NCBI GenBank assembly: GCA_965279515.1
Contig: CBDIID010000001.1
Location: forward strand, 1 to 38,023
Direction of reading: 5' to 3'
DNA: 38,023 nt
From: Turneriella sp.
Lineage (GTDB): Bacteria > Spirochaetota > Leptospiria > Turneriellales > Turneriellaceae
Shown here in pieces: positions 1 to 23,537 of the stretch. A program made the translations under genes and the position numbers. The number at the start of each line of letters is the position of its first letter. Positions within the stretch are counted from its first letter, which is position 1. The notes under the pieces are model-generated. The model worked only from the letters and a program-made list of their open reading frames with translations, did not search any database and was not told the origin of the DNA.

Positions 1-34
1 GCATTCAGCATAGAGCGCCGCTGAAGAGAGCAGG

Positions 35-253
35 CTAAATATCAAAACGATTGCGGGTTTCACAGTTCGGGCAGAGAATGTCAACCTGACCTTTGACGCG
101 CGAGTTGCCGCTTTTGTCGACCAGCTTGCCCACGGCGGTGAATTGAAAGTCGAGGCCTTCGGCATGGTAGTTGCCTTTACCATACTTCGCGGTGCCTTCC
201 ATAATGTAACCACAGGCGTGGCATTTAACCTTTAAACGAATCTTCTCAGCCAT
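35..253 (-). CDS. Small zinc-ribbon protein (72 aa)
   Basis: Two CxxC pairs (CHAC, CPNC); TAATG coupling to upstream MlaD gene. Confidence 0.75.
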   Translation of the reverse strand: MAEKIRLKVKCHACGYIMEGTAKYGKGNYHAEGLDFQFTAVGKLVDKSGNSRVKGQVDILCPNCETRNRFDI

Positions 254-1194
254 TAGTTGTTAAAGAAAATTCTGTAAGGCGCGGATGCCATGTCATTCAG
301 TTTTTCATTTGCATACTTTGCGTAATCGAGCAGCAAAAGATAGATCGTTTCTTCGTGCAGCAGGCGGGCGCTGAAACTTTGCCCGTCGTAAGCCACGCTT
401 TGCTCCAATTTTGCCATGTTGGTCTTGATGGCCGGCAGGTTCTTGTTGAGGTCGTATACCAGAAATTCACTGACGCTGTTGACGCGCGAGAGCATGGTGT
501 AAAGATCTGAACTCGTAGAATTAATTATGCCAAAAAAAGTATTCATTGTTCCTGTTGCCTGGCGTATCGTTGCGCGTACGGCATGGCGCTGGATATACGG
601 GGTTCGTCGCAGATCATCGACCGTTTTTTTCAGCTGTTGCAGCCGCTTTTCGAGAATGCTCATATGCCCGCCTTCAGATTTTATGGCATCGTAATATTGC
701 TGAAACATGATTGTCGAATTGATAATTTTTTCCAAGGGCATGGAGTGATCAAGCGAATAAAATGCTTCGTTGAACGTCGACGGTACAATTTCGATATTGA
801 TAAATTTGGCGCCAAAATAGCCCCACGAGCTCAGTGAAGCGCGGCTGCCGGTTTTGGGAATCGGAAAATCCGTGCGAATCTTTGCGACGATGCGGTGGCC
901 AGACATGTCAGATGTCAGGTGCTCGACCTCACCGATTTCCAGCGCACCCTGGTAGCGGACCTTTGTTCCGGGGCGGATATCCTCGATAAAAGTCGCGGAG
1001 AAAGACATGCGGTAATAGTCCAGGGAGCGGGCAATGCTGCGCGTGCCGAAATACCCCAAAAAAATCGCGAAAAACATCAGGACGGCAAAACCGATCAGAA
1101 GCGTAATTCGATCCGGGTTGCGTATCGAATCCCAGAACGACAACCATTCGGCGGTCGTCGCGGTTTCAGCTGGTTTTTTTTCTGAGGTCAGCAT
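253..1194 (-). CDS. MlaD/Mce-family protein
   Basis: N-terminal TM helix, then MlaD-like motifs IRPGTKVRYQGALEIGEV and WGYFGAKFINI, helical C-terminus. Confidence 0.8.
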   Translation of the reverse strand: MLTSEKKPAETATTAEWLSFWDSIRNPDRITLLIGFAVLMFFAIFLGYFGTRSIARSLDYYRMSFSATFIEDIRPGTKVRYQGALEIGEVEHLTSDMSGHRIVAKIRTDFPIPKTGSRASLSSWGYFGAKFINIEIVPSTFNEAFYSLDHSMPLEKIINSTIMFQQYYDAIKSEGGHMSILEKRLQQLKKTVDDLRRTPYIQRHAVRATIRQATGTMNTFFGIINSTSSDLYTMLSRVNSVSEFLVYDLNKNLPAIKTNMAKLEQSVAYDGQSFSARLLHEETIYLLLLDYAKYANEKLNDMASAPYRIFFNN

Positions 1195-1981
1195 GCAGAA
1201 TCTGGACGGCGTTCATTGCCGCTTCCGAACCCATCTTGTTCTTCTCATAACACAGCAAGAGGATTTTCCGGCGATCCGGAAGATGCTCGAGATACAGAAA
1301 GGCGATGCCGAAGTTCCGTTTTCCCTCAAGCACTGTTCCGGTTTTTCCTGCCAAAAAGCGGAAACGCCGGTTCTGCCGAAGCGCGCGGCAAAAATCAGCC
1401 AGCGTGCCTTCGCAGGTTTGTCTTAAACCGTCCATAATTGTTCGCGCGGCCGGATTTCCATTCTCTTCGGCGCCGAGCAGCGCAGTGTACATGGCCAGTA
1501 GTTTATCTGCTTCGATGCCAGCGGGCAGGTCAAAGCCATAGACATTCACGGGTTTCACAATTTTCAGATCGGCCGGCCAGTCAAACCGCTGTCTCAGCCA
1601 TGCTTCATATTCCGCCAAGTTGAGACCCATAAACCGCGACAGGAAGTAATAGTTGCAGCTCTGCACCAGCGCGGTTTGTAAGGTCATGGCGCCATGGCCG
1701 GCCGGCGTCCAGCAGCGCAGGCGATCCGTACGTTTTTTCTCGGGCGGGCAAAAAATCGTCTCATCGGCTTTAAAACCCTTTTCGAGCAAATACCAGGCGG
1801 CAAAGGGCTTGAGAAGCGAGCCAACAGGCGCGGCCATGGTCTGGTTCTGCTGGTTGAGAATGGTGTATTTTCCCCCTGCATACTCCGCCATGACAAATGC
1901 CGACTTTTTTTCGGCCGAAAGGGCTAATCCTGAAAACAGGAAAATCAAAATTGGATTTACGGCGGCTTTAATTTTGCGCAT
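1166..1981 (-). CDS. Stand-alone penicillin-binding/transpeptidase-fold protein with signal peptide
   Basis: SxxK (GSLLK), SxN (QSCN) and KTG (GKTGT) motifs; hydrophobic N-terminus; no transglycosylase domain. Confidence 0.8.
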   Translation of the reverse strand: MRKIKAAVNPILIFLFSGLALSAEKKSAFVMAEYAGGKYTILNQQNQTMAAPVGSLLKPFAAWYLLEKGFKADETIFCPPEKKRTDRLRCWTPAGHGAMTLQTALVQSCNYYFLSRFMGLNLAEYEAWLRQRFDWPADLKIVKPVNVYGFDLPAGIEADKLLAMYTALLGAEENGNPAARTIMDGLRQTCEGTLADFCRALRQNRRFRFLAGKTGTVLEGKRNFGIAFLYLEHLPDRRKILLLCYEKNKMGSEAAMNAVQILHADLRKKTS

Positions 1982-1984
1982 TCA

Positions 1985-2677
1985 ATGGCGGCAATGGTTG
2001 AAAACGCCGTCACTCTGGAAAGAGAACAGCTTTCCCTGAAGATCAACGAGATCTTTTACAGCATCCAGGGCGAGGGCTCTTATGCCCTTTACCCCTGTGT
2101 CTTTGTACGCCTGACCGGCTGCAACCTGCGCTGCGCCTGGTGTGACACGACCTATTCCTTTTTTGAAGGTGAGCCACAGACTCTGGCGCAGATTCTCGCA
2201 GAGGTGAACCGCTACAACTCAGAACTCGTCGAAGTGACCGGCGGAGAGCCTCTGCTGCAGAAAAACGTCTATGCTTTTTTTGAAATGCTGAAAGCCGCAG
2301 GCAAAAAAATCCTGATTGAAACCTCCGGATCGATTTTGATCGATCGTGTGCCTGAGTATGTGCATATCGTGCTCGACCTGAAAGCACCTGATTCCGGCGA
2401 AGCAGAAAAGAACCGTTATGAAAATCTGGGTTTCATCAAACCTTCGGATGATATTAAGATTGTTGTAGCATCCCAAAAAGACTTTGAATTTGCCGAAGAA
2501 ATTGCGGCGAAGTATGCGCTAGCGCAGAAAATGGAAAAACCGGTCATCATCCAGCCGGCATTCGGGCAACTCGACAGTGCCGAGGTGGGCGAATGGGTGA
2601 AAAACTCAATGACGCGCTTCCGCCTGGGCCTGCAACTGCATAAATTCATCTACGAACCCACTCTCCGGGCGGTTTAA
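1985..2677 (+). CDS. queE: 7-carboxy-7-deazaguanine synthase (radical SAM)
   Basis: EIFYSIQGEG, CNLRCAWCDT (CxxxCxxC), TGGEPL, LQLHK; adjacent to queD and queC. Confidence 0.93.
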   Translation: MAAMVENAVTLEREQLSLKINEIFYSIQGEGSYALYPCVFVRLTGCNLRCAWCDTTYSFFEGEPQTLAQILAEVNRYNSELVEVTGGEPLLQKNVYAFFEMLKAAGKKILIETSGSILIDRVPEYVHIVLDLKAPDSGEAEKNRYENLGFIKPSDDIKIVVASQKDFEFAEEIAAKYALAQKMEKPVIIQPAFGQLDSAEVGEWVKNSMTRFRLGLQLHKFIYEPTLRAV

Positions 2678-3032
2678 TGCTGATCGAAAAGAATTCGTCT
2701 TCGATTCGGCGCATTTTTTACCTTTTGTTCCGCAAGAGCATAAATGCCGGCGCCTGCACGGACACACATACAAAGTCGTGATCGGCGTTGAAGGTGATGT
2801 CAACGATGCCGGCTGGGTCATTGACTTTGCCGATATCAGCGCCGGTGTAAATCCCATTCTGCAGAGTATCGACCATACTTTGCTGAATGCGGTCGAAGGG
2901 CTCGACAATCCCACGGCAGAAAATATTGCCCTTTGGATTTTTACCCGTGTCAAACAGGCTATCCCCCTGTTAAGCTATGTCAGCGTGCAAGAAGGCCTGG
3001 CGTCGCGCGTGATCTACCCCCGTAAACCATGA
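2677..3032 (+). CDS. queD: 6-carboxytetrahydropterin synthase; apparent frameshift at A-run 2687-2690 (likely sequencing error)
   Basis: Copy 2 has 5 A and an intact 118-aa ORF with CRRLHGH and NPTAEN; this copy has 4 A. Confidence 0.88.
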
Positions 3033-3745
3033 GCGCGAAAAAAGCCATAGTTCTGCTTTCGGGTGGCCTCGATTCGGCGACCTGCCTTGCGATCGCAAAA
3101 GAACGCGGGTTTTCACCAACGGCAATTTCCTTTAATTACGGGCAACGGCATAAAAACGAACTCATGGCCGCGGCAAAAATCACCGGTCTTGCAGGTGTTG
3201 AACACACCGTTATTGCCGTAGATCTCGCGGCTATTGGCGGCTCAGCCTTGACGGACAAAATCGCCGTGCCAAAGGGCGGGGCGCATCTGACAGCGGCGCC
3301 TGCGATTCCCGTCACCTATGTGCCTGTGCGCAATATGATTTTTCTATCGCTCGCGTATGCGCTCGCCGAGGCGCGCGGCGCAGCGGCTATTTTTATCGGC
3401 GTCAATGCGATCGACTATTCGGGTTATCCCGACTGCCGCCCCGATTTTATTGAATCGTTTGCGAAAACCGCGGCGCTGGCTTCCAAAATCGGCCGCGAAG
3501 GGCATTCCCCCGAAATTATCGCGCCGCTGGTGACATTTTCAAAGGCCGATATTGCCCGCGAAGCCGCGCGGCTGAAGGTTCCGGTGCAGTTTACCTGGTC
3601 GTGCTACGATCCGCAGATTCTCCATGGTTATTACACTCCCTGTGAAAACTGCGACGCCTGTATCTTGCGCCGCAATGGTTTTGCCGACGCGGGCCTCGTT
3701 CTCTCTAAAGAAGAAATTTTTGGTTCTCCGATAGCGCTTGCATAA
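3029..3745 (+). CDS. queC: 7-cyano-7-deazaguanine synthase
   Basis: SGGLDS, TYVPVRN, DYSGYPDCR, TWSCY...CENCDAC motifs. Confidence 0.95.
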   Translation: MSAKKAIVLLSGGLDSATCLAIAKERGFSPTAISFNYGQRHKNELMAAAKITGLAGVEHTVIAVDLAAIGGSALTDKIAVPKGGAHLTAAPAIPVTYVPVRNMIFLSLAYALAEARGAAAIFIGVNAIDYSGYPDCRPDFIESFAKTAALASKIGREGHSPEIIAPLVTFSKADIAREAARLKVPVQFTWSCYDPQILHGYYTPCENCDACILRRNGFADAGLVLSKEEIFGSPIALA

Positions 3746-4283
3746 AGCGGCTCGCAGGAAACCCCATCACATTAAAATAACAACCCTCGATGCGGCTGAT
3801 ATTCGCCATGCCGAAAGCATCCTGTACACCATAGCCGCCGGCCTTATCATACGGCTCAGGTGTCGCTGTATAGGCGGCAATGGTTGCCTCTGTCAGCTGC
3901 AAAAAATGCACCGCAGTTTTTTCCAGGAAGCTGATCTTTTCGCCGCGCGGAAAAACCATGCAGACCGCAGTAAAAACCCAGTGTGGCCGGCCGGAGAGTT
4001 TTTTCAGCATTTGTGAGGCATGCGCCTGGTCGCGCGGCTTTTCCAGCACCTCGCCCTCCAAAACCACAATCGTATCCGCGGCGATATTCAGCCGGCCGGG
4101 GCGGGCGACAGCAGCGGCCTTTGCCTCTGCCAAAAGCAGCGTCTGCTCGGCAGGGTCGCTGTGGCGTATCGACTCTTCGTCGAGGTTCGCCGGGATAATT
4201 TCGCAGACAAAACCCAGCTTTTCGAGAATTTCACGGCGCCGCGGCGATGCGCTGGCGAGTATTATAGGTTTATCCAGCTGCAT
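3705..4283 (-). CDS. maf: Maf family nucleotide pyrophosphatase (YhdE-like)
   Basis: ILASASPRR, ADTIVV, DKAGGYGVQ motifs. Confidence 0.92.
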   Translation of the reverse strand: MQLDKPIILASASPRRREILEKLGFVCEIIPANLDEESIRHSDPAEQTLLLAEAKAAAVARPGRLNIAADTIVVLEGEVLEKPRDQAHASQMLKKLSGRPHWVFTAVCMVFPRGEKISFLEKTAVHFLQLTEATIAAYTATPEPYDKAGGYGVQDAFGMANISRIEGCYFNVMGFPASRFMQALSENQKFLL

Positions 4284-4325: not shown

Positions 4326-4706
4326 ATGCGCCTCCTTGTGGTTGCCGGAATCTCCGGTTTTTTTGCGGTATTTTTCGGGGCATTCGGTTCGCATATCCTG
4401 AAAGCCTCGCTTGGCGAAAAATTTTTTTCCGTATTCCAGACCGCCAACCAATACCATTTCTGGCATACCCTCGCGCTGCTGGCGGTGGCGCTGCTCAGGG
4501 TTTCCCGGCCGCAAAAATTTTTCACAGCCTCGGCCATAGCCTTTATCAGCGGCCTGGTATTATTCTCGGGCTCGCTGTATTTCTACGCTGTGTACCAGAT
4601 CAAAACATTTGCCATGCTGGCGCCACTCGGCGGGGCGTCGTTTATGTTGGGTTGGCTGTTCTTTACCTTGGGCACAATCCGCGAATTTTCAAAAAAAGCA
4701 ACATAG
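4326..4706 (+). CDS. DUF423 (YgdD/TMEM256) membrane protein
   Basis: GAFGSH, FQTANQYHFWH, LFSGSLY, APLGG...GW; start reassigned to ATG 4326. Confidence 0.88.
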   Translation: MRLLVVAGISGFFAVFFGAFGSHILKASLGEKFFSVFQTANQYHFWHTLALLAVALLRVSRPQKFFTASAIAFISGLVLFSGSLYFYAVYQIKTFAMLAPLGGASFMLGWLFFTLGTIREFSKKAT

Positions 4707-4773: not shown

Positions 4774-4801
4774 ACTTCCCATAATAAATATTATGTCGCA
4801 T
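4774..4801 (+). other. dif-like XerC/XerD recombination site
   Basis: ACTTCCCATAA-TAAATA-TTATGTCGCAT has the 11-6-11 layout with the CATAA-N6-TTATG core of canonical dif sites; intergenic AT-rich context. Confidence 0.75.
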
Positions 4802-4828
4802 TATCATCAATTTTTCCGTTCGGACCGC

Positions 4829-6076
4829 TCAAGTCTGCGCATGCCTCTGCTGTGCAAAAACCAGCCACGCTATGAGACACAATGCCCCGCCCAACAGAAA
4901 TGGAACCGGTAGCCAAACCGCATATAAGCCCGTAGCCACCACAGGCGCGGTAAATCGCGCCAGCGCTGCCAGGGATTGCATATTGCCCAGCGTCTGACCC
5001 TGCTCATTTTTTGGCGCATGGATGGATGCATAGGCGTTCAGCGACGGGCCACCAAAGCCCGAGGCCAGCGCCATCAGAATCAGAACTGCGCTCAAGAGAC
5101 AGATTTTTACCGAAACCCCAGACATGAGGATGCCATCGACATAACCTGCCCACGGCAGCAACAGCATGCCTATCGCCGACCCGATAAGGCCTAGCTTTAC
5201 CCAATGTTCCGGCGGCCTTTTCTTCTCCATGCGGCGGTATAATCCACCCTGAACCAGCGCCAGAATGACGCCCTGCGCGCCGAAGAAATAGAAGGTTTCT
5301 TTCAGGTCAAAATGGTATTGCTTCTGCAGTATCCAGGCAAACAAGACCTCGAAGATAACGAATGCAAACTGGTTCAATAACTGCGTGACATAGGTATTGC
5401 GGCTGCCCGACTTCCTGAAAGCGCTCGCCACAACTGCGAGGCCTTCTCTTTGTACTGCTCCATGACTAACCTCCGCCGCTGAAAATCGATTGATTACAAT
5501 CAGAACAAATGAGATTAAAGATAGTCCAAAACAAACCGCCCCAATCAACCAAAATGGATTAAAATCAATCATTGTCGGCGATGCAGTTTGATTGAAATTG
5601 ATCAGGATACCACCCAGGAACGGACCCAACAGGAACCCCATTCCGATACAAGCTCCCAATAAGCCCATCGCCCGTGGCCGCTGCTCTGGTGTTGTATGGT
5701 CTGCAAGAATGCTCTGGGCGATGGCTATATTACCGCCCGTAATGCCACTGAGCACCCTGCCTGCCAGGAAAAGCCCGTAGTTATTAGCTATGATCCATAT
5801 GGCATAACTAGCCACGTTACCCAATGTAGAGATAAGAAATATGGGTTTCCGGCCATAGATATCTGACAGTCTGCCGAGTATCGGCGCGCTCAACATCTGC
5901 GCCCCGGAATAAGATGCCATGAGAATGCCCATATAGATCTCGGGCGCAAGCGATGAAAGTCCTGAGTTTTTTACCAGGACTTGCGTTAAATCCCGAACGA
6001 CTGGAATCATCACGCCAAACCCCAGCATATCGAGAAAAACCACGAGATATACCGTGGTTTTTGCTGACTTATTCAC
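4829..6076 (-). CDS. MFS transporter, DHA1/TetA-like
   Basis: VFLDMLGFGVMIPV, motif A GRLSDIYGRKP, motif C GFLLGPFLGG, about 12 TM segments. Confidence 0.9.
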   Translation of the reverse strand: MNKSAKTTVYLVVFLDMLGFGVMIPVVRDLTQVLVKNSGLSSLAPEIYMGILMASYSGAQMLSAPILGRLSDIYGRKPIFLISTLGNVASYAIWIIANNYGLFLAGRVLSGITGGNIAIAQSILADHTTPEQRPRAMGLLGACIGMGFLLGPFLGGILINFNQTASPTMIDFNPFWLIGAVCFGLSLISFVLIVINRFSAAEVSHGAVQREGLAVVASAFRKSGSRNTYVTQLLNQFAFVIFEVLFAWILQKQYHFDLKETFYFFGAQGVILALVQGGLYRRMEKKRPPEHWVKLGLIGSAIGMLLLPWAGYVDGILMSGVSVKICLLSAVLILMALASGFGGPSLNAYASIHAPKNEQGQTLGNMQSLAALARFTAPVVATGLYAVWLPVPFLLGGALCLIAWLVFAQQRHAQT

Positions 6077-6139: not shown

Positions 6140-6180
6140 TTGACAGCATATTCTAAATCGAATATTCGAAATAGAATATG
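6140..6180 (+). promoter_or_regulatory. Promoter (-35 TTGACA at 6140) overlapped by 34-bp operator palindrome 6147-6180
   Basis: catattcta-aa-tcgaatattcga-aa-tagaatatg, covering the -10 region and ATG of the regulator; divergent from the MFS gene. Confidence 0.7.
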
Positions 6181-6675
6181 AACACCTTAGACAACCTCCA
6201 ACTATTATTACTGGCAATCCTCCGGGGTAAAAAACACCCCATCTCACGCTATGAGGCCATGGCCACCTTGAACCATGTCACAAGCCGAATCGATCGCCCC
6301 TACTCGCCAGGCGCTGTTTATCACTGCATAAAAAACCTTGCGGGGAGAGAATTAATTAATTTTAATCATAAATCCATACAGATTTCGCCTACTGGGGGCG
6401 CAGCCTTGTCAGATCGCCTCACCCAGGCTCCATTGTCAGAATCTGTTTTGACCATGATCTATGAGGCCTTAGCTTTACAGCTATCTGGCGACCCAGGGCT
6501 TAAAAACTCAGGGATCCGACGACTCAAGGTTGAAATGATCAAATTTAATCAAAGACCAGAATCTCGCCATCTCGAAGGCCCAGAAGCGGGACAGCTTGAC
6601 AAGGCGCTGAATTCTTGTCATTTAGAAATTGTCAAAGGCTTAAATCGATTCATCTTGGAATTAGGCGACATTTAA
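6178..6675 (+). CDS. PadR-like winged-helix transcriptional regulator (divergent)
   Basis: LLLLAIL...ISRYE...SPGAVYHCIKNL...LI...ISPTG resembles PadR wHTH; divergent from MFS. Confidence 0.6.
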   Translation: MNTLDNLQLLLLAILRGKKHPISRYEAMATLNHVTSRIDRPYSPGAVYHCIKNLAGRELINFNHKSIQISPTGGAALSDRLTQAPLSESVLTMIYEALALQLSGDPGLKNSGIRRLKVEMIKFNQRPESRHLEGPEAGQLDKALNSCHLEIVKGLNRFILELGDI

Positions 6676-8293: not shown

Positions 8294-8380
8294 TCTGGGG
8301 CAAGAGGGTTTAAAGAGCCAAAAAGTCAACAAAAAAAGTAAATTTTTTATACCTTCTGCTTATTAAGTTTGCCGTTTTGG

Positions 8381-13400: not shown

Positions 13401-14009
13401 ATGCCATTGATGTTATATACGGTTGTTTTCTTCTTTTTGTTGTGCTTGTTCGGGCTTTTCTGGTATCTGCAAAGCGGTTCTCCCGTTCGCGATGCCTATG
13501 TTTCTCCCTTATTTGGTGATCATGAAAAAAATCTCAGCACCGAGGATCTCTCTCTTCTGCTGGGTCTCAAGCGCATCGAGCATCTCGCCGATCGTGGGCG
13601 TTGGTTGCTCTTTATTTCGATTCTGCTTCTGATTATTGAATTCTTTGCAGTGCTCGGTATGTTGATTGAAAATCGCGGCCAGATGTATTGGGTGACAACA
13701 GTCAATCACGGGTATGTCATCGGCGGGTTCGTTTACCTGCTGGTGTCGATCGTTGCAGTGATTTTTTCCGTGCGCCTCGTGTCTGCGGAGAAAAGTCTTT
13801 CGATCTCAAATCCGTTTGAACGTATCGACGCATGGGAGCACAAGGTCGTGCAGGCAGACGCTGAACAGAAAAAGCGCATTTGCCTGTATCTGAACCAGGA
13901 ATCCGGTCGTCTCGAAGGCTATTTCGCTTTTGTTTTTGCCCTCGTCGGCTGCGGACTGACTCTGTTAACTTTCTGGGTCGCCGGCTGGCTGATGCAGTTC
14001 GTTCGCTGA
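13401..14009 (+). CDS. Hypothetical membrane protein (about 4 TM)
   Basis: agggggc RBS before ATG 13401; four hydrophobic segments. Confidence 0.75.
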   Translation: MPLMLYTVVFFFLLCLFGLFWYLQSGSPVRDAYVSPLFGDHEKNLSTEDLSLLLGLKRIEHLADRGRWLLFISILLLIIEFFAVLGMLIENRGQMYWVTTVNHGYVIGGFVYLLVSIVAVIFSVRLVSAEKSLSISNPFERIDAWEHKVVQADAEQKKRICLYLNQESGRLEGYFAFVFALVGCGLTLLTFWVAGWLMQFVR

Positions 14010-16416: not shown

Positions 16417-17045
16417 CACCAGAAGAACTTGCAGGACATCCTTTAGCCGCAGAGCTCGCAGCCTGTGGAAATCTTTTTCACAGCTGGCAGTGGTCGCTTT
16501 CGAGCAGCAGCAATTATTCGGCGCTACTTAGTGAAGGGCGGGTTATTATTTCGCGCTCAGGGGTGGATAAAGAGCATATGACTTCGGCTGACTTCATGCT
16601 GGTAGATCTTGAAGCAAAGCCAATCCCTCCTTTTGATCAATTCAAACCATCGGCCGAAACTGAACTTCACTGCCATCTCTACAAAATGGGAGAAAAGGCG
16701 GGCGCCAAAGCTGTGCTGCACACACACTCTAAATATTCCGTATATTTTTCGCGTAAATATCTCCAGCAGGGCAGATTAAGCGTTTCTGGTTTTGAGATGC
16801 AGAAAATTTTTGAAGGTGTTAAGACGCATGACAGCACTGTGGAAATTCCTGTGTTTAAAAATAGCCAGAGCATGCCCGACATCACAGCCGAGTTTGATGT
16901 ATACCTCAAAACAAACCCTATGCCGCCGGCTTATCTGATCGACGGACACGGGATTTACTCCTGGGCAAAAACTGTTTTACACGCCAAGCAGAAACTCGAG
17001 GCGCTGGAGCACTTGCTCGAGTTGAAGTACATGGAGGAGCCATAA
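16413..17045 (+). CDS. mtnB: Methylthioribulose-1-phosphate dehydratase
   Basis: Class II aldolase motifs SGVDK, KPSAETELH, VLHTHS, GHGIYSW; adjacent to mtnD and mtnC. Confidence 0.9.
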   Translation: MTPEELAGHPLAAELAACGNLFHSWQWSLSSSSNYSALLSEGRVIISRSGVDKEHMTSADFMLVDLEAKPIPPFDQFKPSAETELHCHLYKMGEKAGAKAVLHTHSKYSVYFSRKYLQQGRLSVSGFEMQKIFEGVKTHDSTVEIPVFKNSQSMPDITAEFDVYLKTNPMPPAYLIDGHGIYSWAKTVLHAKQKLEALEHLLELKYMEEP

Positions 17046-17584
17046 TGCAAACCAGATTAACAGTCAGCCCTGAGACAGCCCATAAGGCAGAAGAAGTTCT
17101 TACAGATTTTGAAAGTATCCGCAAGAAGCTGGCTGAATTAAAGATCGGCTATGAGCGCTGGCAGGCTGAAAAACCCCTGAGCGAAACAGCCACGCCTGAA
17201 GAAGTGGCGGCGGCCTACCGGTCTTCGATTGATAAGATCATGAGCCAGGGTTACAAAACATTTGATGTTGTTTCACTCCATCCCGAGGCGCCGAATGCAG
17301 CCGAAGCGCGCGCCCGGTTCATAAATGAACATACGCATGGCGAAGATGAAGTGCGGTTTTTTGTCGATGGTTCAGGAATGTTTTATATCCGCGCCGGCGG
17401 TAAGGTTTATATGCTGTTGTGCACGAAAGGCGATTTTATCAATCTGCCGGCCGGCACGACGCACTGGTTTGACATGGGGCCAAAGCCGTTTTTTAAGGCG
17501 ATTCGTGTTTTTAACAATCCCGAAGGCTGGGTGGGCAAATTCACCGGAGACACCATTTCAGAAAGATTTCCGAAGTACGAATAA
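17045..17584 (+). CDS. mtnD: Acireductone dioxygenase
   Basis: EHTHGEDEVRFFVDGSG, PAGTTHWFDMG, GWVGKFTGD. Confidence 0.93.
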   Translation: MQTRLTVSPETAHKAEEVLTDFESIRKKLAELKIGYERWQAEKPLSETATPEEVAAAYRSSIDKIMSQGYKTFDVVSLHPEAPNAAEARARFINEHTHGEDEVRFFVDGSGMFYIRAGGKVYMLLCTKGDFINLPAGTTHWFDMGPKPFFKAIRVFNNPEGWVGKFTGDTISERFPKYE

Positions 17585-18289
17585 GTGGCCAAAACCATTC
17601 GCGCGGTCGTCTGTGATATCGAGGGCACGACTTCTTCGATATCGTTTGTGCACCGGGTTCTTTTTCCGTTGTCGCTCGATAAGCTGTCGGAATACCTGGA
17701 CGCCCATTTTGCAGACGACGATGTTGCGAAGCAGCTCGAAGTGCTTTGGCAGAAAATTCAGCCGCCGGCCGGTGCGGATAAAAAGAAGTTATTGCTCGAG
17801 ACCTTGCAGGATTATATACGCAAAGATGTAAAGGATACGACGCTCAAGTGGGTTCAGGGGAAAATCTGGCAGGTAGCGTTCGAGAGCGGGCAGATTAAAG
17901 GTCATGTTTATCCCGAGGTGCCGGATTTTTTCCGCCGCTGGACATCCGACAATCTAAAACTCTTCATTTACAGTTCTGGCTCTGTCGAAGCGCAAAAACT
18001 GATGTTTCGTTATTCGGAAGCCGGCGACCTCGCAGAATATCTCAGTGGTTATTTTGATACAATGACGGGAATGAAGCGTGAAGCGCCTTCGTATGGAAAG
18101 ATCGCTGCAGCGACGGGGTTTGCGCCCGGCGAAATGCTTTTTCTCTCAGACATTGTAGAGGAGCTGAACGCTGCGAACGCCGCTGGCATGCAGACCTGTC
18201 TTTTGCTGCGTGACGGTTCGGCCGCGCCGGCTGGTTATGCAGGCGCCAGGGCGGGCGATTTCGGAGAAGTTAACGCGCAATTTTTTTAG
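17585..18289 (+). CDS. mtnC: Enolase-phosphatase E1 (acireductone synthase)
   Basis: DIEGTTSSISFV, LKWVQGKIW, IYSSGSVEAQKL, LFLSD. Confidence 0.93.
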   Translation: MAKTIRAVVCDIEGTTSSISFVHRVLFPLSLDKLSEYLDAHFADDDVAKQLEVLWQKIQPPAGADKKKLLLETLQDYIRKDVKDTTLKWVQGKIWQVAFESGQIKGHVYPEVPDFFRRWTSDNLKLFIYSSGSVEAQKLMFRYSEAGDLAEYLSGYFDTMTGMKREAPSYGKIAAATGFAPGEMLFLSDIVEELNAANAAGMQTCLLLRDGSAAPAGYAGARAGDFGEVNAQFF

Positions 18290-18322: not shown

Positions 18323-19807
18323 ATGGCAAAACCTTTTATCATTACCATCGATCAGGGCACCACGGGTTCGCGGGTGTTTCTGATCTCAGAACGCGGCGAA
18401 GTGATTTCGAGCGCCTACGAAGAATTTACACAGCATTTCCCCCGCCCTGGCTGGGTTGAGCATGATGCCAATGAAATATGGACCAGTGTTTCGCGGCTAT
18501 TGGGAAAGGCTCTTCAGGGCTCGGGTCTCAAGGCCTCTGACGCTGCAGCGATAGGCATCACGAACCAGCGTGAAACAACTGTTATCTGGGAAAAGGGTAC
18601 GGGTAAGCCGATTCATAATGCGATTGTCTGGCAATGCCGGCGCACAGCCGATTATTGCGAGCAGCTGAAAAAAGAAGGCAAGGCGGATGTCTTTCGTAAT
18701 AAAACCGGCCTCGTGCTCGACGCATATTTTTCCGGTACCAAGATCAAATATATTCTCGACAATGTTTCGGGCGCACGTGCGCGCGCGGAGAAGGGTGAAT
18801 TACTTTTTGGAACCATCGATTCGTTTCTTCTTTATAAACTAACGGGCGAGCACAAGACCGATTTTACCAACGCTTCGCGCACATTAATCTTTAATATCCA
18901 CGAGCGCAAGTGGGATAGCGAACTCTGTCAGATTCTGCATATCCCCGAGAATATTCTGCCGACAGCACAGGCGTCGAAGAGTCTGTTCGGCAAGACCAAG
19001 GGGCTCTCTACGCTACCCGACGGAATCCCTGTCTATGCGATGATCGGTGACCAGCAGTCTGCTCTCTATGGCCAGCTCTGCCACAGCCCTGGTGAGGCCA
19101 AGAACACCTATGGTACCGGCTGTTTTGTCGTTATGAATCTCGGTGATAAGTTCTTACAGAGCAAGCACGGGCTCATCACGACGCTGGCCTGCGATGCCAA
19201 CGGCGAACCTGTATACGCGCTCGAAGGTTCGATTTTTATCGGTGGTGCAGTAGTCCAGTGGTTGCGTGACAAAATGCAATTTTTTGACGATTCGACGAAG
19301 TCAGAGAGCCTGGCGAAATCGGCTTCCCAGGAATCCGATGTGGTTTTCGTTCCGGCTTTCGCAGGCTTGGGCGCGCCATACTGGGATCAAAATGCCCGGG
19401 GTGCAATCCTGGGTCTTACCCGTGATACCACCGCCGGTCAGATTACGCAGGCGGCGCTGAAGGCGATTGCGCTGCAGTCATACGACGTGATTGCAGCAAT
19501 GCAGGCCGATAGCGGCCTCAAATTGCCTTCGCTCAAGGTCGATGGCGGCGCGACACGGAACCATTACCTGATGGAATTTCAGGCTGGTGTGTTAAATTCG
19601 TCAGTCGTGGTTCCGCGGAACGCCGAAACAACTGTATTGGGTGCTGCATATCTCGCCGGCCTCGGCGCGAAAGTCTGGTCGTCGCCCGATGACCTCAAAG
19701 GGTTGAATCCACCTGCGGCAACCTACCACCCGGTGATGGGCGCGCCACAGCGGGAGCGCGAGCTTAAACTCTGGAAAGATGCTGTGGGAAGAATTTTGAC
19801 GAAGTGA
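18323..19807 (+). CDS. glpK: Glycerol kinase
   Basis: DQGTTGSR, GITNQRET, GDQQSAL, KNTYGTG, PAFAGLGAPYW, LKVDGG. Confidence 0.96.
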   Translation: MAKPFIITIDQGTTGSRVFLISERGEVISSAYEEFTQHFPRPGWVEHDANEIWTSVSRLLGKALQGSGLKASDAAAIGITNQRETTVIWEKGTGKPIHNAIVWQCRRTADYCEQLKKEGKADVFRNKTGLVLDAYFSGTKIKYILDNVSGARARAEKGELLFGTIDSFLLYKLTGEHKTDFTNASRTLIFNIHERKWDSELCQILHIPENILPTAQASKSLFGKTKGLSTLPDGIPVYAMIGDQQSALYGQLCHSPGEAKNTYGTGCFVVMNLGDKFLQSKHGLITTLACDANGEPVYALEGSIFIGGAVVQWLRDKMQFFDDSTKSESLAKSASQESDVVFVPAFAGLGAPYWDQNARGAILGLTRDTTAGQITQAALKAIALQSYDVIAAMQADSGLKLPSLKVDGGATRNHYLMEFQAGVLNSSVVVPRNAETTVLGAAYLAGLGAKVWSSPDDLKGLNPPAATYHPVMGAPQRERELKLWKDAVGRILTK

Positions 19808-20284
19808 TCAGGCGTCTTTGACAGCTTTGAGAATATCGAGTGCATGTGTCTTCACGGAAACTTTTTCGAAGACGTGCGTGATTTTTCCCGCAGTGTCGAT
19901 AACGAAGGTGGAGCGCAGGATGCCCATGTATTTTCTGCCGTACATGGACTTTTCAGCCCACACGCCGAATGCTTCGGTGACTTTTCCGGTGTCGTCGAAA
20001 AGTAGCTGGAAATTGAGATCGTGATTATCAATGAACTTTTTATGCGCTTTTTCATTGTCGCGCGAGCAGCCGATAATGTTGAACCCGGCTTTTTTTAAAG
20101 CGGCACTATTGTCACGGAAGCATTGCGCCTCGGTTGTGCAGCCGGGGGTGTTGTCTTTCGGGTAAAAGTAGAGAATGAGTTTTTTTGCTTTATAGAGTTC
20201 AGAAAGTTTAATTTTACGGGGTTCGCCGTCGCCGACCAGTATACCGGTCAGCGCGGCGGGTATTTTTTTTCCCGCGGTCAGCAT
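19808..20284 (-). CDS. bcp: Peroxiredoxin BCP/PrxQ
   Basis: YFYPKDNTPGCTTEA, MYGRKYMGILRSTF. Confidence 0.92.
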   Translation of the reverse strand: MLTAGKKIPAALTGILVGDGEPRKIKLSELYKAKKLILYFYPKDNTPGCTTEAQCFRDNSAALKKAGFNIIGCSRDNEKAHKKFIDNHDLNFQLLFDDTGKVTEAFGVWAEKSMYGRKYMGILRSTFVIDTAGKITHVFEKVSVKTHALDILKAVKDA

Positions 20285-20499
20285 TACTTGAGTTTGCCCA
20301 GAATGCCTTTTTCCTGAAGGTATTTATAGAACGTGTCACGGTTCTTTGGTTTGTATTTCGCTCCACCGTCTTTTTTCCATGTGCGGCAAGCAGTTTGCAT
20401 TTTGTCGACGTTTTCTTTCGACGAACCCTTCTTGAAGTGCTTTAATACCGTTATCATTTCGTGTTCCTGCTCGCAGGCAACCAGATGTTTATCAGCCAT
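20284..20499 (-). CDS. Small basic hypothetical protein (71 aa)
   Basis: agggggc RBS, TAATG coupling with bcp. Confidence 0.65.
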   Translation of the reverse strand: MADKHLVACEQEHEMITVLKHFKKGSSKENVDKMQTACRTWKKDGGAKYKPKNRDTFYKYLQEKGILGKLK

Positions 20500-20511
20500 A
20501 ATAGGCCCCCT

Positions 20512-21120
20512 TTAGTTTTCGCGAGAGGTATAGTTTGCCCCGGCGCCGTCAATTGCTTTTACAAGTTCAATTGCAGCGTGATGCAGAACATCGATGATTT
20601 TTTTTCGGCGCTTGCCGAACTCATCATTGTTTAAGGCAGGCACATGAACAAAGAGCGCAGGGAGTCTGAGACGCGATGAAAGCATTTTATAGTAGATGAA
20701 ATTGCACAAGTAGGTTCCGGCATTGTCGCTAACAGATAAGAATTTTTTTCCTGAGTGAAAACGCCGCCGCAGCGCAGTGCCAATTTTTGTTACCGGCAAG
20801 GGGGATGTAATTCTTTGGGCTGAATTTTTCGCAATGGGGATTAATCCCCGTTTTGAGATTCTTTGATTTCGTGCTGTCGTCTCTAAGGTGAGGGCAGTGG
20901 AAGTTTTTTCGCCGAGCAGCAGTACGGCGTCCGGTTTATGGTGAACGAGATGTTTGCGCAGGGTCGGCCAGGCGTGATAAAAGTTTACGGGAAGGATTGC
21001 GAATCGATAGGATAAAAGGCCTATTTGATTGTGACCATTGCGCAGCTCCGAAAGCAGATCTTGTGAGGTGTTGCAGGTTCTTCCGCCGAAAGGTTCAAAT
21101 GCGGTAACGAGCAGTTTCAA
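20512..21120 (-). CDS. pcp: Pyroglutamyl-peptidase I
   Basis: KLLVTAFEPFGG, LETTARN, AGTYLCN, FVHVP (E/C/H triad); TTG start at 21120. Confidence 0.88.
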   Translation of the reverse strand: MKLLVTAFEPFGGRTCNTSQDLLSELRNGHNQIGLLSYRFAILPVNFYHAWPTLRKHLVHHKPDAVLLLGEKTSTALTLETTARNQRISKRGLIPIAKNSAQRITSPLPVTKIGTALRRRFHSGKKFLSVSDNAGTYLCNFIYYKMLSSRLRLPALFVHVPALNNDEFGKRRKKIIDVLHHAAIELVKAIDGAGANYTSREN

Positions 21121-21219
21121 GAAGCAACACCTGAGCTTTTGGTATTGCCTGAAGCAGAGTGTCAATGAAATGTCATTTAAAACTTGCCGGGGACAGTTCT
21201 GTGCTATATTTTACCAAGT

Positions 21220-22191
21220 ATGAAACAATACTTAATATACTTTAGCGTCCTCGCCGCGGTATTGAACTGTGGCCCTAAAATAGACCATGCTGAAGTTCGC
21301 AACCGCGCGAAATCAGCATTTGGCACCTTGCCGGCGAAAATACCTGGTTCTGAAAAAGACACCCCTGAACTGATCGCCTTGGGTAAAACCCTCTACAACG
21401 ATCGCCGCCTCTCCATCAACGATACGCAATCGTGTGCAAGCTGCCATGTGATTGAAGGTAAGAAAGGCGGCGTCGACAACACTAAGTTTAGCCCTGGTGC
21501 GAAAGGCAGTTTGGGCGGCCGCAACGCCCCTACAGTGCTCAACGCCGGCTTCCATTTTGTCCAGTTCTGGGATGGCCGGGCTGCGACCTTGTCTGACCAG
21601 GCTAAGGGGCCGATTCTGAATCCCGTCGAGATGGGCATGCCGAATGAAAAGGCCGTGCTTGAGAAACTTTCGAAGATTGCAGAATATAAAGAGGCTTTTG
21701 CCAAGGCATTTCCCGGTGCGAAGAATTCTATCACTTACCAAAATCTTGCTGATGCGATTGCAGCGTTTGAGCGCACGCTGATCACGCATGACCGCTTGGA
21801 TGATTATCTGAACGGCGACGATAAGGCGCTGACAAAAGAAGAAATCCTGGGTATGCAAACCTTCATGACGCAGGGATGCACAACCTGCCACATCGGGCCC
21901 TTGCTCGGTGGCAACAGCTACCGCAAAATGGGTCAGGCGAAACCGTATGAGACGAAAGATCTCGGGCGCTACGAGGTGACAAAAAAAGAAGAAGATAAGT
22001 TTATGTTCAAAGTTCCATCGTTGCGCAACATTGCTTTGACTGAGCCATACTTCCACGATGGTTCTGCCGCAACACTTTCCGAAGCTGTTGCAAAAATGGC
22101 AGTCCACCAGCTGGGCAAACAGCTCGGCGAAAAAGAAGTCGGCCAGATCGTGACTTTCCTCAAAGCTCTTACAGACAAAGAACGTCTCTAA
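21220..22191 (+). CDS. Di-heme cytochrome c peroxidase, probable lipoprotein
   Basis: CASCH and CTTCH, RNAPTV, QFWDGRA, FKVPSLRN, PYFHDGS; signal ending AVLNC resembles a spirochaetal lipobox. Confidence 0.92.
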   Translation: MKQYLIYFSVLAAVLNCGPKIDHAEVRNRAKSAFGTLPAKIPGSEKDTPELIALGKTLYNDRRLSINDTQSCASCHVIEGKKGGVDNTKFSPGAKGSLGGRNAPTVLNAGFHFVQFWDGRAATLSDQAKGPILNPVEMGMPNEKAVLEKLSKIAEYKEAFAKAFPGAKNSITYQNLADAIAAFERTLITHDRLDDYLNGDDKALTKEEILGMQTFMTQGCTTCHIGPLLGGNSYRKMGQAKPYETKDLGRYEVTKKEEDKFMFKVPSLRNIALTEPYFHDGSAATLSEAVAKMAVHQLGKQLGEKEVGQIVTFLKALTDKERL

Positions 22192-22199
22192 ACAGGGCA

Positions 22200-22232
22200 G
22201 GGTGGGGGATCTCCCCCGCCCTCCAATTCTTT
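22200..22232 (+). terminator. Hairpin after cytochrome c peroxidase
   Basis: gggtggggg-atct-cccccgccc stem followed by a pyrimidine-rich tail. Confidence 0.5.
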
Positions 22233-22271
22233 AACCTCTCAACATTTTTCACCCAAGGCCGATAAACGAAT

Positions 22272-23027
22272 ATGGCCCGCTATGCGATTTATGCTCTGCT
22301 GCTTGTTCTGCTCAATGCCCTGAGTTCCGCTTCTGCAGCGAATGTCGACAATGACTACAGAGATGCGCTCTCTTTATTCCAGCGCCGGGACATTGCATCC
22401 TGCCTGCGTACCATCACCCTCCTGGAGAGAAATCTCGAACAGAAAGCAGACCATGCGGATTCACAGGCCCTGATCGCCTATGCCTATGCGCACCAGGCTT
22501 TTATCCTTTCGCAGATCGGTGAATCCGGAGCTGACTACCTGAATTCCGCCGACGCCTTCTCGAAGGCTGTGCTTGCGCAGCAGCCGCAGAATCCATTTGC
22601 GCGCAAGGCAAAACTTTTGTTGCAGCTCATCGGCGGTAATTTTGCCGATGTGCGCAAGACCTTTGAAAAAGAGCTGACGGATAAAGAAACCGACGCAGAT
22701 CTTTGGTATATGTCTGCGGTTGCCGGCGATGCCGACAAAGCCGCAAAGTCACTCGGCACGGCACTCCGGCTCAACGCCGATCTGGTGTGGATTTACACCG
22801 ACATGGCCTTTCGTGCGCTCAAGATGAATGACCTCTCAACCGCGGAAAAGTGGCTGCGCGCGCTCGAGGCGCGCAAACCCGGCATTGCCGACATCGATCT
22901 CTTAAAGGCTACCATTGCGGCGCAGAGGCAGGATAAAAAGACAGTCCAGGCATCATGGAGCGATTTCTCGCGCAAGGCGCCTGATTTTGCACTCGTCGCC
23001 CGGTTTGCTGGCCGCGCTAAAAAGTAA
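22272..23027 (+). CDS. Exported TPR-like helical repeat protein
   Basis: Signal peptide; TPR-like segments (AVLAQQPQNPFA, ALRLNADLVWIY). Confidence 0.7.
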   Translation: MARYAIYALLLVLLNALSSASAANVDNDYRDALSLFQRRDIASCLRTITLLERNLEQKADHADSQALIAYAYAHQAFILSQIGESGADYLNSADAFSKAVLAQQPQNPFARKAKLLLQLIGGNFADVRKTFEKELTDKETDADLWYMSAVAGDADKAAKSLGTALRLNADLVWIYTDMAFRALKMNDLSTAEKWLRALEARKPGIADIDLLKATIAAQRQDKKTVQASWSDFSRKAPDFALVARFAGRAKK

Positions 23028-23537
23028 TCATTGCAACGGCAGGGTGCTTCTCAACCCGGCATCCGAGTTCAATACATCTATCAGCAATTTCAGTAATTCA
23101 CAGCGCGGTAGATCAGCGCGTGCCTTCCAGCGGTCCTGGAGCGGGGCTGTTTGCGCCGGCGCAGTTGTGCACTTGGCCGTGTCAGACATCGCGAGTACAA
23201 ACGGTTCGGCGACGGGGTAGGGGAGCACCTGCCAACGCATGTCGAGGTAGACATGCGCCATTTCATGCATGAGATCGGTGAGCTTGGCGCTACGCCTCAG
23301 AATTCTGCCTCTCTTGCGGTCGAGAGCCGATTGCATTTTTGAGCCGCCTTTGATTTCAAAGAAGTAATTCCGCCCGGTGCAAACCATGAGCTCGTCAGGG
23401 AACCGCGCCGCGCCATAAGTTTCGTTAAAAAGCCGCCAAAACGTCTGCGCCCCGGTTGTCTTCACAAGCGGCATGCATTCAGCATAGAGCGCCGCTGAAG
23501 AGAGCAGGCTAAATATCAAAACGATTGCGGGTTTCAC
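23028..23537 (-). CDS. Small exported HExxH zinc-metallopeptidase-like protein; spans the unit seam (5' end also at 1-63)
   Basis: GTG 23537 gives signal MKPAIVLIFSLLSSAALYA; HEMAH motif with downstream E (PVAEPF). Confidence 0.65.
   Translation of the reverse strand: MKPAIVLIFSLLSSAALYAECMPLVKTTGAQTFWRLFNETYGAARFPDELMVCTGRNYFFEIKGGSKMQSALDRKRGRILRRSAKLTDLMHEMAHVYLDMRWQVLPYPVAEPFVLAMSDTAKCTTAPAQTAPLQDRWKARADLPRCELLKLLIDVLNSDAGLRSTLPLQ

Follow-up and report, generated by a model that had tools for sequence, protein, structure and literature searches.

Our analysis of a 38,023-bp Turneriella contig (C1, the whole of which is here called the window) leads us to conclude, with a probability of roughly 75%, that its first 23,474 nucleotides represent a circular 23.5-kb replicon with the replication and partition core of Leptospira chromosome II, likely a miniature, vertically inherited chromid. 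On a tiny scale, the circle corresponds to the second Leptospira chromosome: a known type of chromid in an extremely small form. It is likely a permanent part of the genome and possibly an essential one. The original prediction of a tiny secondary chromosome rather than an ordinary plasmid is sustained by homology, single-copy cargo, composition and vertical inheritance, but not as regards chromid-defining essentiality and a 1:1 copy number.

The window consists of one unit of the replicon (1..23474) followed by a 14,551-bp second copy of positions 1-14543 (23475..38023), which matches the first at 99.93% identity with ten single-base indels and no substitutions; we read this copy as an overlap left by over-circularised assembly, carrying long-read indel errors, and not as a real duplication. 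That the unit closes on itself, as had been proposed, is borne out both by this repeat structure and by short-read contigs that bridge the junction at 23474/23475 with no differences (two of four runs, all from one study that is possibly the assembly's own source), giving a true length of 23,474-23,475 bp. The same runs contain the 4.84-Mb chromosome (C3) at 0 differences, and blastn found no similarity between C1 and C3. The further claim that no gene is broken holds once long-read error is removed and fails for the contig as assembled, where the first copy of queD is frameshifted; an intact second copy, with which a short-read contig agrees without gaps, identifies the break as a long-read error. 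In place of the roughly 27 genes first counted, we find 29 ORFs. In two runs contig depth was 2.0-3.6 for the unit and 4.6-8.2 for a stretch of chromosome; in a third, both stood at 2. These values lie near the floor and are not equivalent to copy number; by such depths the unit would not be multicopy, yet neither would it be at 1:1 with the chromosome.

Gene identities come from Pfam and NCBIfam profile searches of the 29 proteins. Reading from position 1, the map opens with a 72-aa zinc-ribbon-like protein (35..253, minus strand), common to the origin region of Leptospira chromosome II at about 50-67%, an MlaD/MCE-domain protein (253..1194, minus), with further MlaD-domain genes on the chromosome, and a penicillin-binding transpeptidase-domain protein (1166..1981, minus). 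The que cluster contains a queE-like radical SAM enzyme that scores under its NCBIfam cut-off (1985..2677, plus), queD (2677..3032, plus; a base is missing at 2687, and the intact copy lies at 26151-26507) and queC (3029..3745, plus). It is followed by maf (3705..4283, minus), a DUF423 membrane protein (4329..4706, plus), an MFS transporter far under tetracycline-efflux cut-offs (4829..6076, minus), a 165-aa hypothetical protein (6178..6675, plus), a DEDDh 3'-5' exonuclease with a dnaQ-family domain and a C-terminal extension (6709..7575, minus) and the poorly conserved hypothetical orf272 (7514..8332, minus). Next come orf332, a conserved 332-aa protein of unknown function (8381..9379, minus) that is also found on Leptospira chromosome II and on the chromosome in a fused lineage, and, divergent from parA, a Fis-HTH regulator-like protein (9376..10410, minus) shared with Leptospira chromosome II mainly in its C-terminal HTH. 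Then follow parA (10569..11327, plus), parB (11311..12144, plus) and rep (12430..13335, plus), which encodes an HTH_36 winged-helix initiator with distant likeness to phage replication-initiation and DnaD-like families and most likely starts at 12430 rather than 12322. Beyond a predicted 211-aa membrane protein (13374..14009, plus) lies a discoidin (F5/8 type C) domain protein (14023..16416, plus), whose gene comes after rep on Leptospira chromosome II too and is chromosomal in the fused lineage. The circle is completed by mtnB, mtnD and mtnC for methionine salvage (16413..18289, plus), glpK (18323..19807, plus), bcp, a 71-aa conserved hypothetical and pcp (19808..21165, minus), a di-haem cytochrome c peroxidase with a TPR protein (21184..23027, plus) and a hypothetical ORF that is intact over the circle junction (23028..23687, minus).

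The genes named at the outset, from parA-parB-rep-discoidin through queEDC, mtnBDC, glpK, maf, bcp, pcp and ccp to MlaD, were thus all recovered, and, as anticipated, none of the 29 proteins belongs to a transposase, integrase, relaxase, T4SS, toxin-antitoxin or capsid family in Pfam or NCBIfam; nor did additional scans, of 11 of the 29 proteins with PHROGs and of 12 with PADLOC, bring up any such family. The unit carries no tRNA, no dnaA among its 29 proteins by the same profiles, and no universal essential gene that we could recognise among its 29 genes. The host bin also contains an unrelated 6.6-kb mobilisable plasmid.

The closest known relative is pTURPA.01 of Turneriella parva DSM 21527 (NC_018021.1 / CP002960), at 25,287 bp the small second replicon to which the original prediction had pointed. 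All 29 genes have counterparts there in the same circular order, ParA being 92% and Rep 77% identical, and the two replicons have the same parS, parB-rep spacer and dif; pTURPA.01 differs in carrying IS481. The T. parva replicon is thus already known and deposited as a plasmid, and a link between its ParA and Leptospira was reportedly pointed out in a 2018 preprint. In the accessible part of the genome paper it figures as a second scaffold and receives no analysis (PMC3746428).

The resemblance to Leptospira chromosome II (~280-460 kb) extends well beyond the suspected parA-parB-winged-helix Rep-discoidin order, which Rep and ParA matches confirm. The zinc-ribbon, orf332, Fis-like, parA, parB, rep and discoidin genes occur in identical order, the first three as a divergent block, and the two replicons appear, from their sequences, to have an identical parS-like palindrome and a conserved parB-rep spacer. 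ParA is 60% identical to that of L. interrogans chromosome II, with which it falls in one clade (98 SH-aLRT); for the remaining plasmid and phage records among the matches listed, identity does not exceed about 40%. Ten of the 29 unit proteins match a 307-kb Leptospira chromosome II, and mtnB and mtnD are also present on the single chromosome II read whole. The unit is, however, more than 10 times smaller, and asd, gltB, metF and the hem genes of chromosome II are missing from it (asd, gltB and metF have no representative among its 29 proteins), whereas it carries queEDC. Because cargo differs between the lineages, queC being on the large chromosome in Leptospira, the unit does not just carry a selection of chromosome II genes, and it may be either an ancestral seed or a reduced form of it.

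Within the class, Rep is present in 144 of 164 genomes and in every one of the 111 genomes of family f8, to which the Leptospira-type genomes belong; of the order's 34 genomes, 22 have a chromid-type ParA. Related replicons are circles of 14.7-32 kb; among 58 Rep clusters at at least 66% identity, 17 lie on contigs of 23.5-25.9 kb and none on a longer contig. One lineage has exchanged its Rep, and a phage O-type Rep can replace it in relatives. In four reduced genomes that have no rep, parAB, orf332, DEDDh and discoidin genes lie on chromosome-scale or ordinary contigs, and in three genomes of family f3 queC, orf332, DEDDh, discoidin and parAB lie on megabase contigs.

The composition of the unit, as the original prediction required, lies inside the range of the chromosome, whose own blocks are at least as deviant in 31 of 206 cases for GC, 28 of 206 for tetranucleotides and 25 of 204 for codon usage. 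Its GC content of 51.9% against 53.1% leaves a gap of 1.2 points, which exceeds the 1-point rule for chromids. Across 18 hosts, replicon GC follows that of rpoB (r=0.945). Distances for ParA, ParB, Rep, discoidin and orf332 correlate with those for RpoB (Mantel rho 0.72-0.88), and the nearest ParA and Rep relatives come from the host's nearest RpoB relatives. Vertical inheritance, with replicon trees following host RpoB, is strongly supported at the level of sequence. Against it, agreement with the RpoB tree is limited to between 6 of 13 splits for Rep and 12 of 17 for orf332.

The cargo is largely single-copy: for 23 of the 29 proteins, tblastn finds no match on C3 or C2, and queDC, mtnBDC, glpK and maf are among them, in keeping with expectation, whereas queF, tgt and mtnA reside on the chromosome, so that the que and mtn pathways are split between replicons. 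The Harrison criteria, in the form given in the available part of PMC6090056, ask for plasmid-type replication, chromosome-like composition, core genes that are essential, and conservation. The unit has parA, parB, an HTH_36 Rep with phage-initiator matches and no dnaA; it is chromosome-like in GC, tetranucleotides and codon usage; it carries genes that are chromosomal in other species (queC, located on the first contig in each of the two closed Leptospira-type genomes, and core genes in f3); and its Rep distribution extends through the genus and beyond. On whether those genes are essential, patterns of retention bear only indirectly. In a cell-cycle view, about one copy per chromosome is a further criterion (PMC13342612).

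An unlikely alternative is that the unit shares its ancestor with Leptospira chromosome II and is now a stable, dispensable low-copy plasmid with useful cargo and no essential gene, missing from certain cells and species. The T. parva counterpart is, after all, deposited as a plasmid, contig depth is under that of the chromosome in two runs, and que, mtn, glpK and maf are usually dispensable in culture; glpK is also non-obligatory given the gpsA-family genes on C3. Moreover, none of five replicon markers is found in 10 of the order's 34 genomes, one of which is a single contig at 99% completeness. Yet queF is kept in eight of these ten, and mtnA occurs without mtnB in all five tested, as one would expect had a small circle dropped from the bin; one genome has just a 3.2-kb fragment of the replicon. 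Marker absence is thus probably binning loss. The retention of core genes on the chromosome in highly reduced genomes and the presence of Rep in all 111 genomes of family f8 likewise argue against dispensability.

The notion of a recently acquired remnant of an LE1/p74/lcp-type plasmid-prophage, resembling chromosome II only through a layout of parA-parB-rep that, according to the parts available of PMC2229662 and PMC4338851, is common to LE1, p74 and lcp1-3, is largely refuted. Although the distant phage-initiator matches of Rep and the phage O-type Rep swapped into relatives might favour it, the unit has no recognisable phage structural genes, and Rep has no match in 50,697 phage records or among IMG/VR loci. 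In 72,556 plasmid records the sole matches to Rep are pTURPA.01 (76.9%) and two L. interrogans records of chromosome II size (37.7%), in collections that may not include LE1, p74 and lcp1-3; on these records, the Rep/Par check places the unit with chromosome II and not with phage or plasmid clades. In two closed Leptospira-type genomes, the third contig contains neither Rep nor a strong ParA match, and the ParA clade, the common flanking genes, parS and spacer, and the co-divergence with RpoB point the same way. Least probable of all is an assembly artefact or an element misbinned from another organism, as the over-circularised contig with its indel errors, the mobilisable plasmid in the same bin and the presence of two such circles in one bin might suggest; this is opposed by the independent short-read contigs over the junction, from runs that also contain the chromosome, by the nearest-relative pattern of ParA and Rep, and by the orthologous replicon in the isolate T. 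parva.

We therefore return to the chromid reading and suggest how such a circle might be maintained. The candidate parS, origin and dif sites of the original prediction are each backed by sequence conservation. Two putative parS sites, a perfect 16-bp palindrome (10456..10471) and a second copy (10503..10518), precede parA; similar palindromes are found ahead of parA in eight of eight Leptospira-type loci and 15 of 19 non-fused loci, and none occurs at up to one mismatch on the 4.84-Mb chromosome. The candidate origin within rep (12764..12897, plus) has three iteron-like repeats spaced by about 23 bp and, after them, a G-poor, A/T-rich tract, and the GC-skew minimum of the unit, at 12893, falls inside it. 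Upstream lie a candidate rep promoter with a -35-like hexamer and a conserved 12-bp box (12177..12201, plus) and a predicted antisense RNA unit (12310..12396, minus), with a -35-like hexamer (12396-12391), a second box (12379-12368) and an RNA of about 50 nt ending in a hairpin (12335-12318) and a U-run. Promoter-like hexamer, hairpin and U-run are present in 24 of 24 aligned loci; the RNA has no Rfam match and its alignment gives no covariation. Two genomes still keep the module after loss of this rep, and its role may thus go beyond regulating rep. The candidate dif (4774..4801, minus), found once on each replicon in 13 of the 15 sets scanned, lies 8 kb away from the candidate origin, neither opposite it nor at the skew maximum of the unit; on the chromosome the dif matrix finds a single strong site 7 kb from the GC-skew maximum. 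We hypothesize that Rep binds the repeats within its own gene and opens the adjoining A/T-rich tract, that the antisense RNA in the parB-rep spacer damps rep expression and so keeps copy number low, that ParA-ParB segregates copies from this private parS, and that host XerCD resolves dimers at the chromosomal-type dif. The cell likely keeps the circle for the sake of its genes: the sole ones for early queuosine synthesis, the sole mtnBDC and glpK, and a conserved block of unknown function, of which orf332, the Fis-like regulator and the discoidin protein would be kept by every lineage with the system, even after chromosomal fusion.

More tentatively, and at somewhat less than even odds, chromosome II could mark one extreme of a chromid family spanning the class, with essential circles of 15-25 kb, carrying 15-29 genes, at the opposite extreme; these would be the smallest chromids described and would approximate the founding core. 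A few essential genes of unknown function (orf332, Fis-like, discoidin) would hold them in the cell, the antisense RNA and a host-wide operator also upstream of dnaA would govern them, and one order would display every stage in the life of a chromid, from the minimal circle through growth and initiator replacement to re-fusion. A 15-25-kb replicon orthologous to an accepted second chromosome uncouples the term chromid from size, and a 15-29-gene system in the culturable, free-living T. parva opens the genes behind second-chromosome indispensability to single knockouts. For initiator swap and re-fusion, the order provides natural examples. For Leptospira chromosome II, the rep of which is called no more than putative in the available text, candidates for parS, origin, antisense RNA and dif can now be named.

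Among known systems, the repABC replicons of Alphaproteobacteria, whose origin lies within repC, resemble the unit in their parA-parB-rep order, in an antisense RNA between parB and rep (predicted here) and in a candidate origin inside the rep gene. A counter-transcribed RNA ahead of the initiator gene is described for repABC in the part of PMC6090056 available. The Rep of the unit, by contrast, is HTH_36/phage-initiator-like with no RepC family match in Pfam or NCBIfam; by analogy, the unit appears to work like a repABC replicon, yet is no member of that family. Chromids are usually seen as large domesticated megaplasmids. Borrelia burgdorferi cp26, a 26-kb circle with essential genes that is never lost in culture, as the accessible part of PMC2229028 has it, is likewise a small circular spirochaete replicon, but it has no gene in common with the unit by annotation alone, its essentiality is proven, and it does not correspond to any larger second chromosome. 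The Pseudobutyrivibrio PxyII chromid, given as 88,942 bp in the portion of PMC7523725 available, and that of Dinoroseobacter, given as 72 kb in the corresponding portion of PMC4373377, are the smallest chromids in the literature available and likewise small secondary replicons of chromosome-like composition; in contrast to them, the unit is 3-4 times and its relatives 5-6 times smaller, with an unrelated replication system.

We put the probability at about three in four that the unit, a circular replicon of 23,474 bp (window 1-23474), is a real and very small orthologue of Leptospira chromosome II that would qualify, on sequence grounds, as a chromid. The contig, which makes up the entire window (38,023 bp), is one of three in a genome with a completeness rating of 99.99%, beside a 19,790-bp contig and the 4,840,723-bp chromosome, and consists of the unit and, after it, 14,551 bp in which its start is repeated; this second copy matches the first at 99.93% identity, with ten single-base indels and no substitutions. 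No DNA similarity between this contig and the chromosome was found. Short-read contigs from two of the four public runs compared with it, all of one study that is possibly the source of the assembly, cross the junction at 19958-24311 and 14830-24328 with no differences, and where such contigs cover the indels they agree with the intact reading. An ORF also runs uninterrupted over the junction, and the unit is on these grounds a circle of 23,474-23,475 bp. The original prediction of a unit that closes on itself with no broken gene thus holds for the circle, while queD is broken in the first copy, by read error only; likewise, family scans bore out the predicted gene identities and not the number, about 27, as the unit has 29 ORFs. 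As predicted, none of the 29 proteins fell into a family of transposases, integrases, relaxases, secretion systems, toxin-antitoxins or capsids; 11 of the 29 were scanned against PHROGs as well, and 12 against PADLOC.

The kinship of the unit is seen in its initiator, a winged-helix (HTH_36) Rep. Among 72,556 plasmid records Rep matches three, namely Turneriella parva plasmid pTURPA.01 (76.9% identity) and two records from L. interrogans, 350 and 394 kb long (37.7%); neither the 50,697 phage records nor IMG/VR gave a match. On the first of these L. interrogans records asd, metF and hem genes surround the same origin, and this record is chromosome II deposited as a plasmid. ParA is 92% identical to that of pTURPA.01 and 60% to those of the L. 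interrogans records, other plasmid or phage records among the matches listed reaching about 40% or less. All 29 unit proteins match pTURPA.01, in identical circular order, the plasmid differing by an extra IS481. The order Zn-ribbon gene, orf332 (a conserved 332-aa protein), Fis-like gene, parA, parB, rep and discoidin gene moreover recurs around the origin of chromosome II in the examined Leptospira-type loci, the Zn-ribbon match being absent within the fetched stretch in one of seven; in a 307-kb chromosome II searched whole, ten of the 29 proteins are matched, by these seven origin-region genes together with mtnB, mtnD and a bcp-like gene. A Rep profile search was positive in 144 of 164 class genomes of at least 90% completeness, nearly always in single copy, including 111/111 of family f8, that of the Leptospira-type genomes, and 22/28 of family f9. 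The ParA tree sets the small-replicon, fused and chromosome II sequences apart from three other ParAs (98 SH-aLRT); its outgroup branches are long, and true Leptospira plasmids are not represented among its ParAs. The predicted relationship to Leptospira chromosome II and the T. parva replicon is thereby strongly supported, in that among the plasmid records Rep matches these only, all 29 proteins recur on pTURPA.01 and gene order is shared. The PLSDB records NZ_CP020413.2, NZ_CP043881.1 and NZ_CP092665.1 comprise two L. interrogans records of chromosome II size deposited as plasmids and a 109-kb "plasmid" that resembles a chromosome fragment, with dnaE and gatB adjoining its ParA.

Similar circles recur across the order. 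Contigs that bear Rep or ParA and have terminal repeats are 23,828, 32,323, 22,806, 17,424 and 17,261 bp long, and contigs of 25,416 and 24,693 bp carry all 29 genes in permuted order and no terminal repeat; a contig scan of genomes for close loci found four. The smallest members found are two metagenome contigs with near-perfect terminal repeats, which close into circles of roughly 15.5 and 14.7 kb and carry about 15 genes. Rep clusters at 66% identity or more number 58 among the best 120 of 258, of which 17 come from contigs 23.5-25.9 kb long and the other 41 from shorter contigs, no contig being longer. Family f2 has larger pieces, with rep on 83- and 38-kb contigs and the discoidin-que segment apart on 72- and 28-kb contigs, so replicon size varies inside the order. 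One bin, G029, holds two circles (C102 and C22, GC 31.8% and 27.0%), one of which is probably from another organism.

Two departures from this plan concern the initiator. On the 17.3-kb circle of genome G018, parAB, parS, dif and the customary cargo are present and an HTH_36 Rep is absent; in G018 and G017 alike, mtnC is followed by a two-domain replication gene of the phage O type (L067:11922-12932 and L091:2461-3660), which likely reflects initiator replacement; a 270-aa "Rep" match in G017 proved to be an unrelated O-type protein and was dropped before the tree was built. Family f3 comprises four genomes of 1.9-2.7 Mb, which have no rep and retain chromid-type parAB, orf332, Fis-like, DEDDh exonuclease, MFS and discoidin genes (loci L063:90-6387, L064, L088 and L089). 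In three of the four these core genes lie on contigs of more than 1 Mb, in two with parB followed by enolase, and a parS-like site is found in the orf332 region of all four (0-2 mismatches) and none before parA; a single query, run with no positive control, did not find the Zn-ribbon gene in them. Since f3 is nested inside the order and the outgroup carries the replicon, fusion into the main chromosome with loss of rep would be the simplest reading. That genomes this small keep the core genes is the best sign, albeit an indirect one, that these genes are indispensable.

Ties to the host appear in cargo, composition and co-divergence. By tblastn, 23 of the 29 proteins have no match on the chromosome or the 19,790-bp contig, among them queD, queC, maf, mtnB, mtnD, mtnC, glpK, pcp, DEDDh, discoidin and rep, and distant paralogues exist for queE, MFS, parA, parB, bcp and ccp. 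The suggested check, whether que, mtn, glpK and maf are single-copy and off the main chromosome, thus comes out positive for queD, queC, mtnBDC, glpK and maf, with a distant paralogue for queE. The chromosome carries queF, mtnA and two tgt matches above cut-off (373320-374393 and 3338501-3339577, one within a 723-aa frame), so queuosine synthesis and methionine salvage are divided between replicons. The unit lies inside the chromosome's compositional range: its GC is 51.9% against 53.1% (31 of 206 chromosome windows are equally low), its tetranucleotide signature is equalled in distance by 28 of 206 windows, and its codon usage by 25 of 204 coding blocks, the 19,790-bp contig being matched by only 18 of 784. 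That contig, made of roughly three copies of a 6.6-kb unit that encodes a MobA/MobL relaxase and a C-5 methylase, differs from the chromosome in codon usage and is an ordinary mobilisable plasmid, possibly misbinned. Across 18 replicons GC follows host rpoB GC (r=0.945), with one G029 circle excluded and composition-based binning able to inflate r. Patristic distances correlate with those of a quick-mode RpoB tree for ParA (rho 0.81), ParB (0.72), Rep (0.79), discoidin (0.79) and orf332 (0.88), over 15-22 taxa and with none of 999 permutations as high; DEDDh, queC and MlaD give 0.56, 0.63 and 0.86. Gene trees and RpoB have 4/11 to 12/17 splits in common, making the congruence broad rather than exact.

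Against chromid status one may set that no universal essential gene was recognised on the unit. DEDDh as sole DnaQ was rejected, given one further PF00929 gene on the chromosome and a DnaE with a PHP domain, and its orthologue was not found in two of three Leptospira-type genomes; glpK as essential, MlaD as single-copy and the MFS protein as a tetracycline pump were likewise dropped, given chromosomal gpsA-family genes, four chromosomal Pfam matches and scores far under cut-offs. For orf332, an AlphaFold model (pLDDT 80, pTM 0.47) had no Foldseek match at E<=0.001 and no ESM Atlas match, residues 202-332 giving generic helical structural matches only (Z up to 8.1). Short internal repeats follow one another in the discoidin protein (window 14900-15650), for which only a weak PHROG match was found; such repeats resemble those of phage tail fibres.

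Dispensability could also be read from the ten of 34 order genomes that have none of five replicon markers. Eight of the ten keep queF, all five tested keep mtnA without mtnB, and one further genome has only a 3.2-kb fragment of the replicon; loss during binning fits this pattern, and true loss is possible. Contig depth, near the floor, was 2.0-3.6 on the unit where one chromosome stretch had 4.6-8.2 (two runs), and was 2 on both in a third run; the unit is thus not multicopy, yet falls below the 1:1 that PMC13342612 gives for large lineage-associated replicons. Seed and reduced form of chromosome II, both offered in the original prediction, would fit alike, the comparison being one of two sister lineages and no outgroup that has the replicon. 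As queC lies on the large chromosome in Leptospira and asd, metF and hem are absent from the unit, each lineage has its own cargo around a common core.

Sequence similarity to chromosome II extends to the candidate parS. A 16-bp palindrome in two copies before parA (10456 and 10503), a candidate parS by sequence conservation, recurs there in 8/8 Leptospira-type and 15/19 non-fused loci, the remaining four having sites within one mismatch nearby; the chromosome has no site within one mismatch and has two sites of its own that fit the canonical parS consensus. These lie with the chromosomal skew minimum at about 2.85 Mb (2.84-2.87 Mb), dnaA being at 4.28 Mb and chromosomal parAB at 4.51 Mb; the chromosomal origin is apparently distant from dnaA, or the assembly is inverted. 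A candidate dif site (4774-4801, minus strand) is present in single copy in 13 of 15 replicon sets. Its distance to the candidate origin of the unit is 8 kb, and it is off the unit's skew maximum. A matrix from these sites finds one chromosomal site (304,403) at a score of 34.0, the second-best reaching 21.7, and this site is 7 kb away from the chromosomal skew maximum (311,185); the accessible part of PMC5357621 holds nothing on a Leptospira dif. The candidate origin is inside rep, where a G-poor A/T tract comes after repeats spaced at about 23 bp; GC skew on the unit reaches its minimum at 12,893. The repeat pattern, picked after inspection, has 62 matches in 22 related, non-independent loci against 26 in synonymous shuffles (0/500 as high). 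Lambda-type origins have this same layout.

The minus strand of the parB-rep spacer carries, in 24 of 24 loci aligned (two with insertions were excluded), a -35-like hexamer, a 5' stretch that is conserved, a hairpin of 7-10 bp whose sequence varies (z -2.7 to -6.3) and a U-run, and this module is kept in two genomes that lost the HTH_36 rep. The repABC antisense RNA of about 50 nt, as described in PMC6090056, has the same anatomy as this predicted RNA (12361-12310). Rfam gave no match, a sigma-70 scan returned no promoters, RNAalifold found no covarying stem (MAFFT left the variable hairpin unaligned), and folding the leader with and without the antisense-covered stretch showed no clear attenuator switch; a sequence search for the motif in the supplements of the Leptospira sRNA studies PMC5243855 and PMC13224635, whose tables may give coordinates only, did not find it. 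A 12-bp box (12190-12201 and 12364-12375) repeats the left arm of the dif-like site (4790-4801). The chromosome has 52 copies, 36 outside long ORFs and one directly upstream of dnaA, and all 41 genomes tested have 2 to 374 copies (reversed control 0-2), including genomes without the family Rep, for which reason Rep was dropped as its binder; the box could link the replicon to a host regulator.

Earlier descriptions, in the parts accessible to us, touch on this replicon from several sides: the T. parva genome paper (PMC3746428) lists it as a second scaffold or plasmid without analysis, a preprint (bioRxiv 10.1101/264945) has a Leptospira ParA cluster common to one T. parva plasmid, and PMC2229662 gives chromosome II a partition operon and a putative rep and proposes an LE1-like phage as its source. 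PMC10645730 concerns rRNA-operon plasmids. A designation of pTURPA.01 as a chromid was not found in searches of an open-access library, and the tables of that preprint, from 2018, may classify it. Because small essential replicons exist, cp26 being one (PMC2229028), and the replicon of T. parva was made public in 2012, the kind of replicon is already known; what is new here is an extremely small version of a known chromid type.
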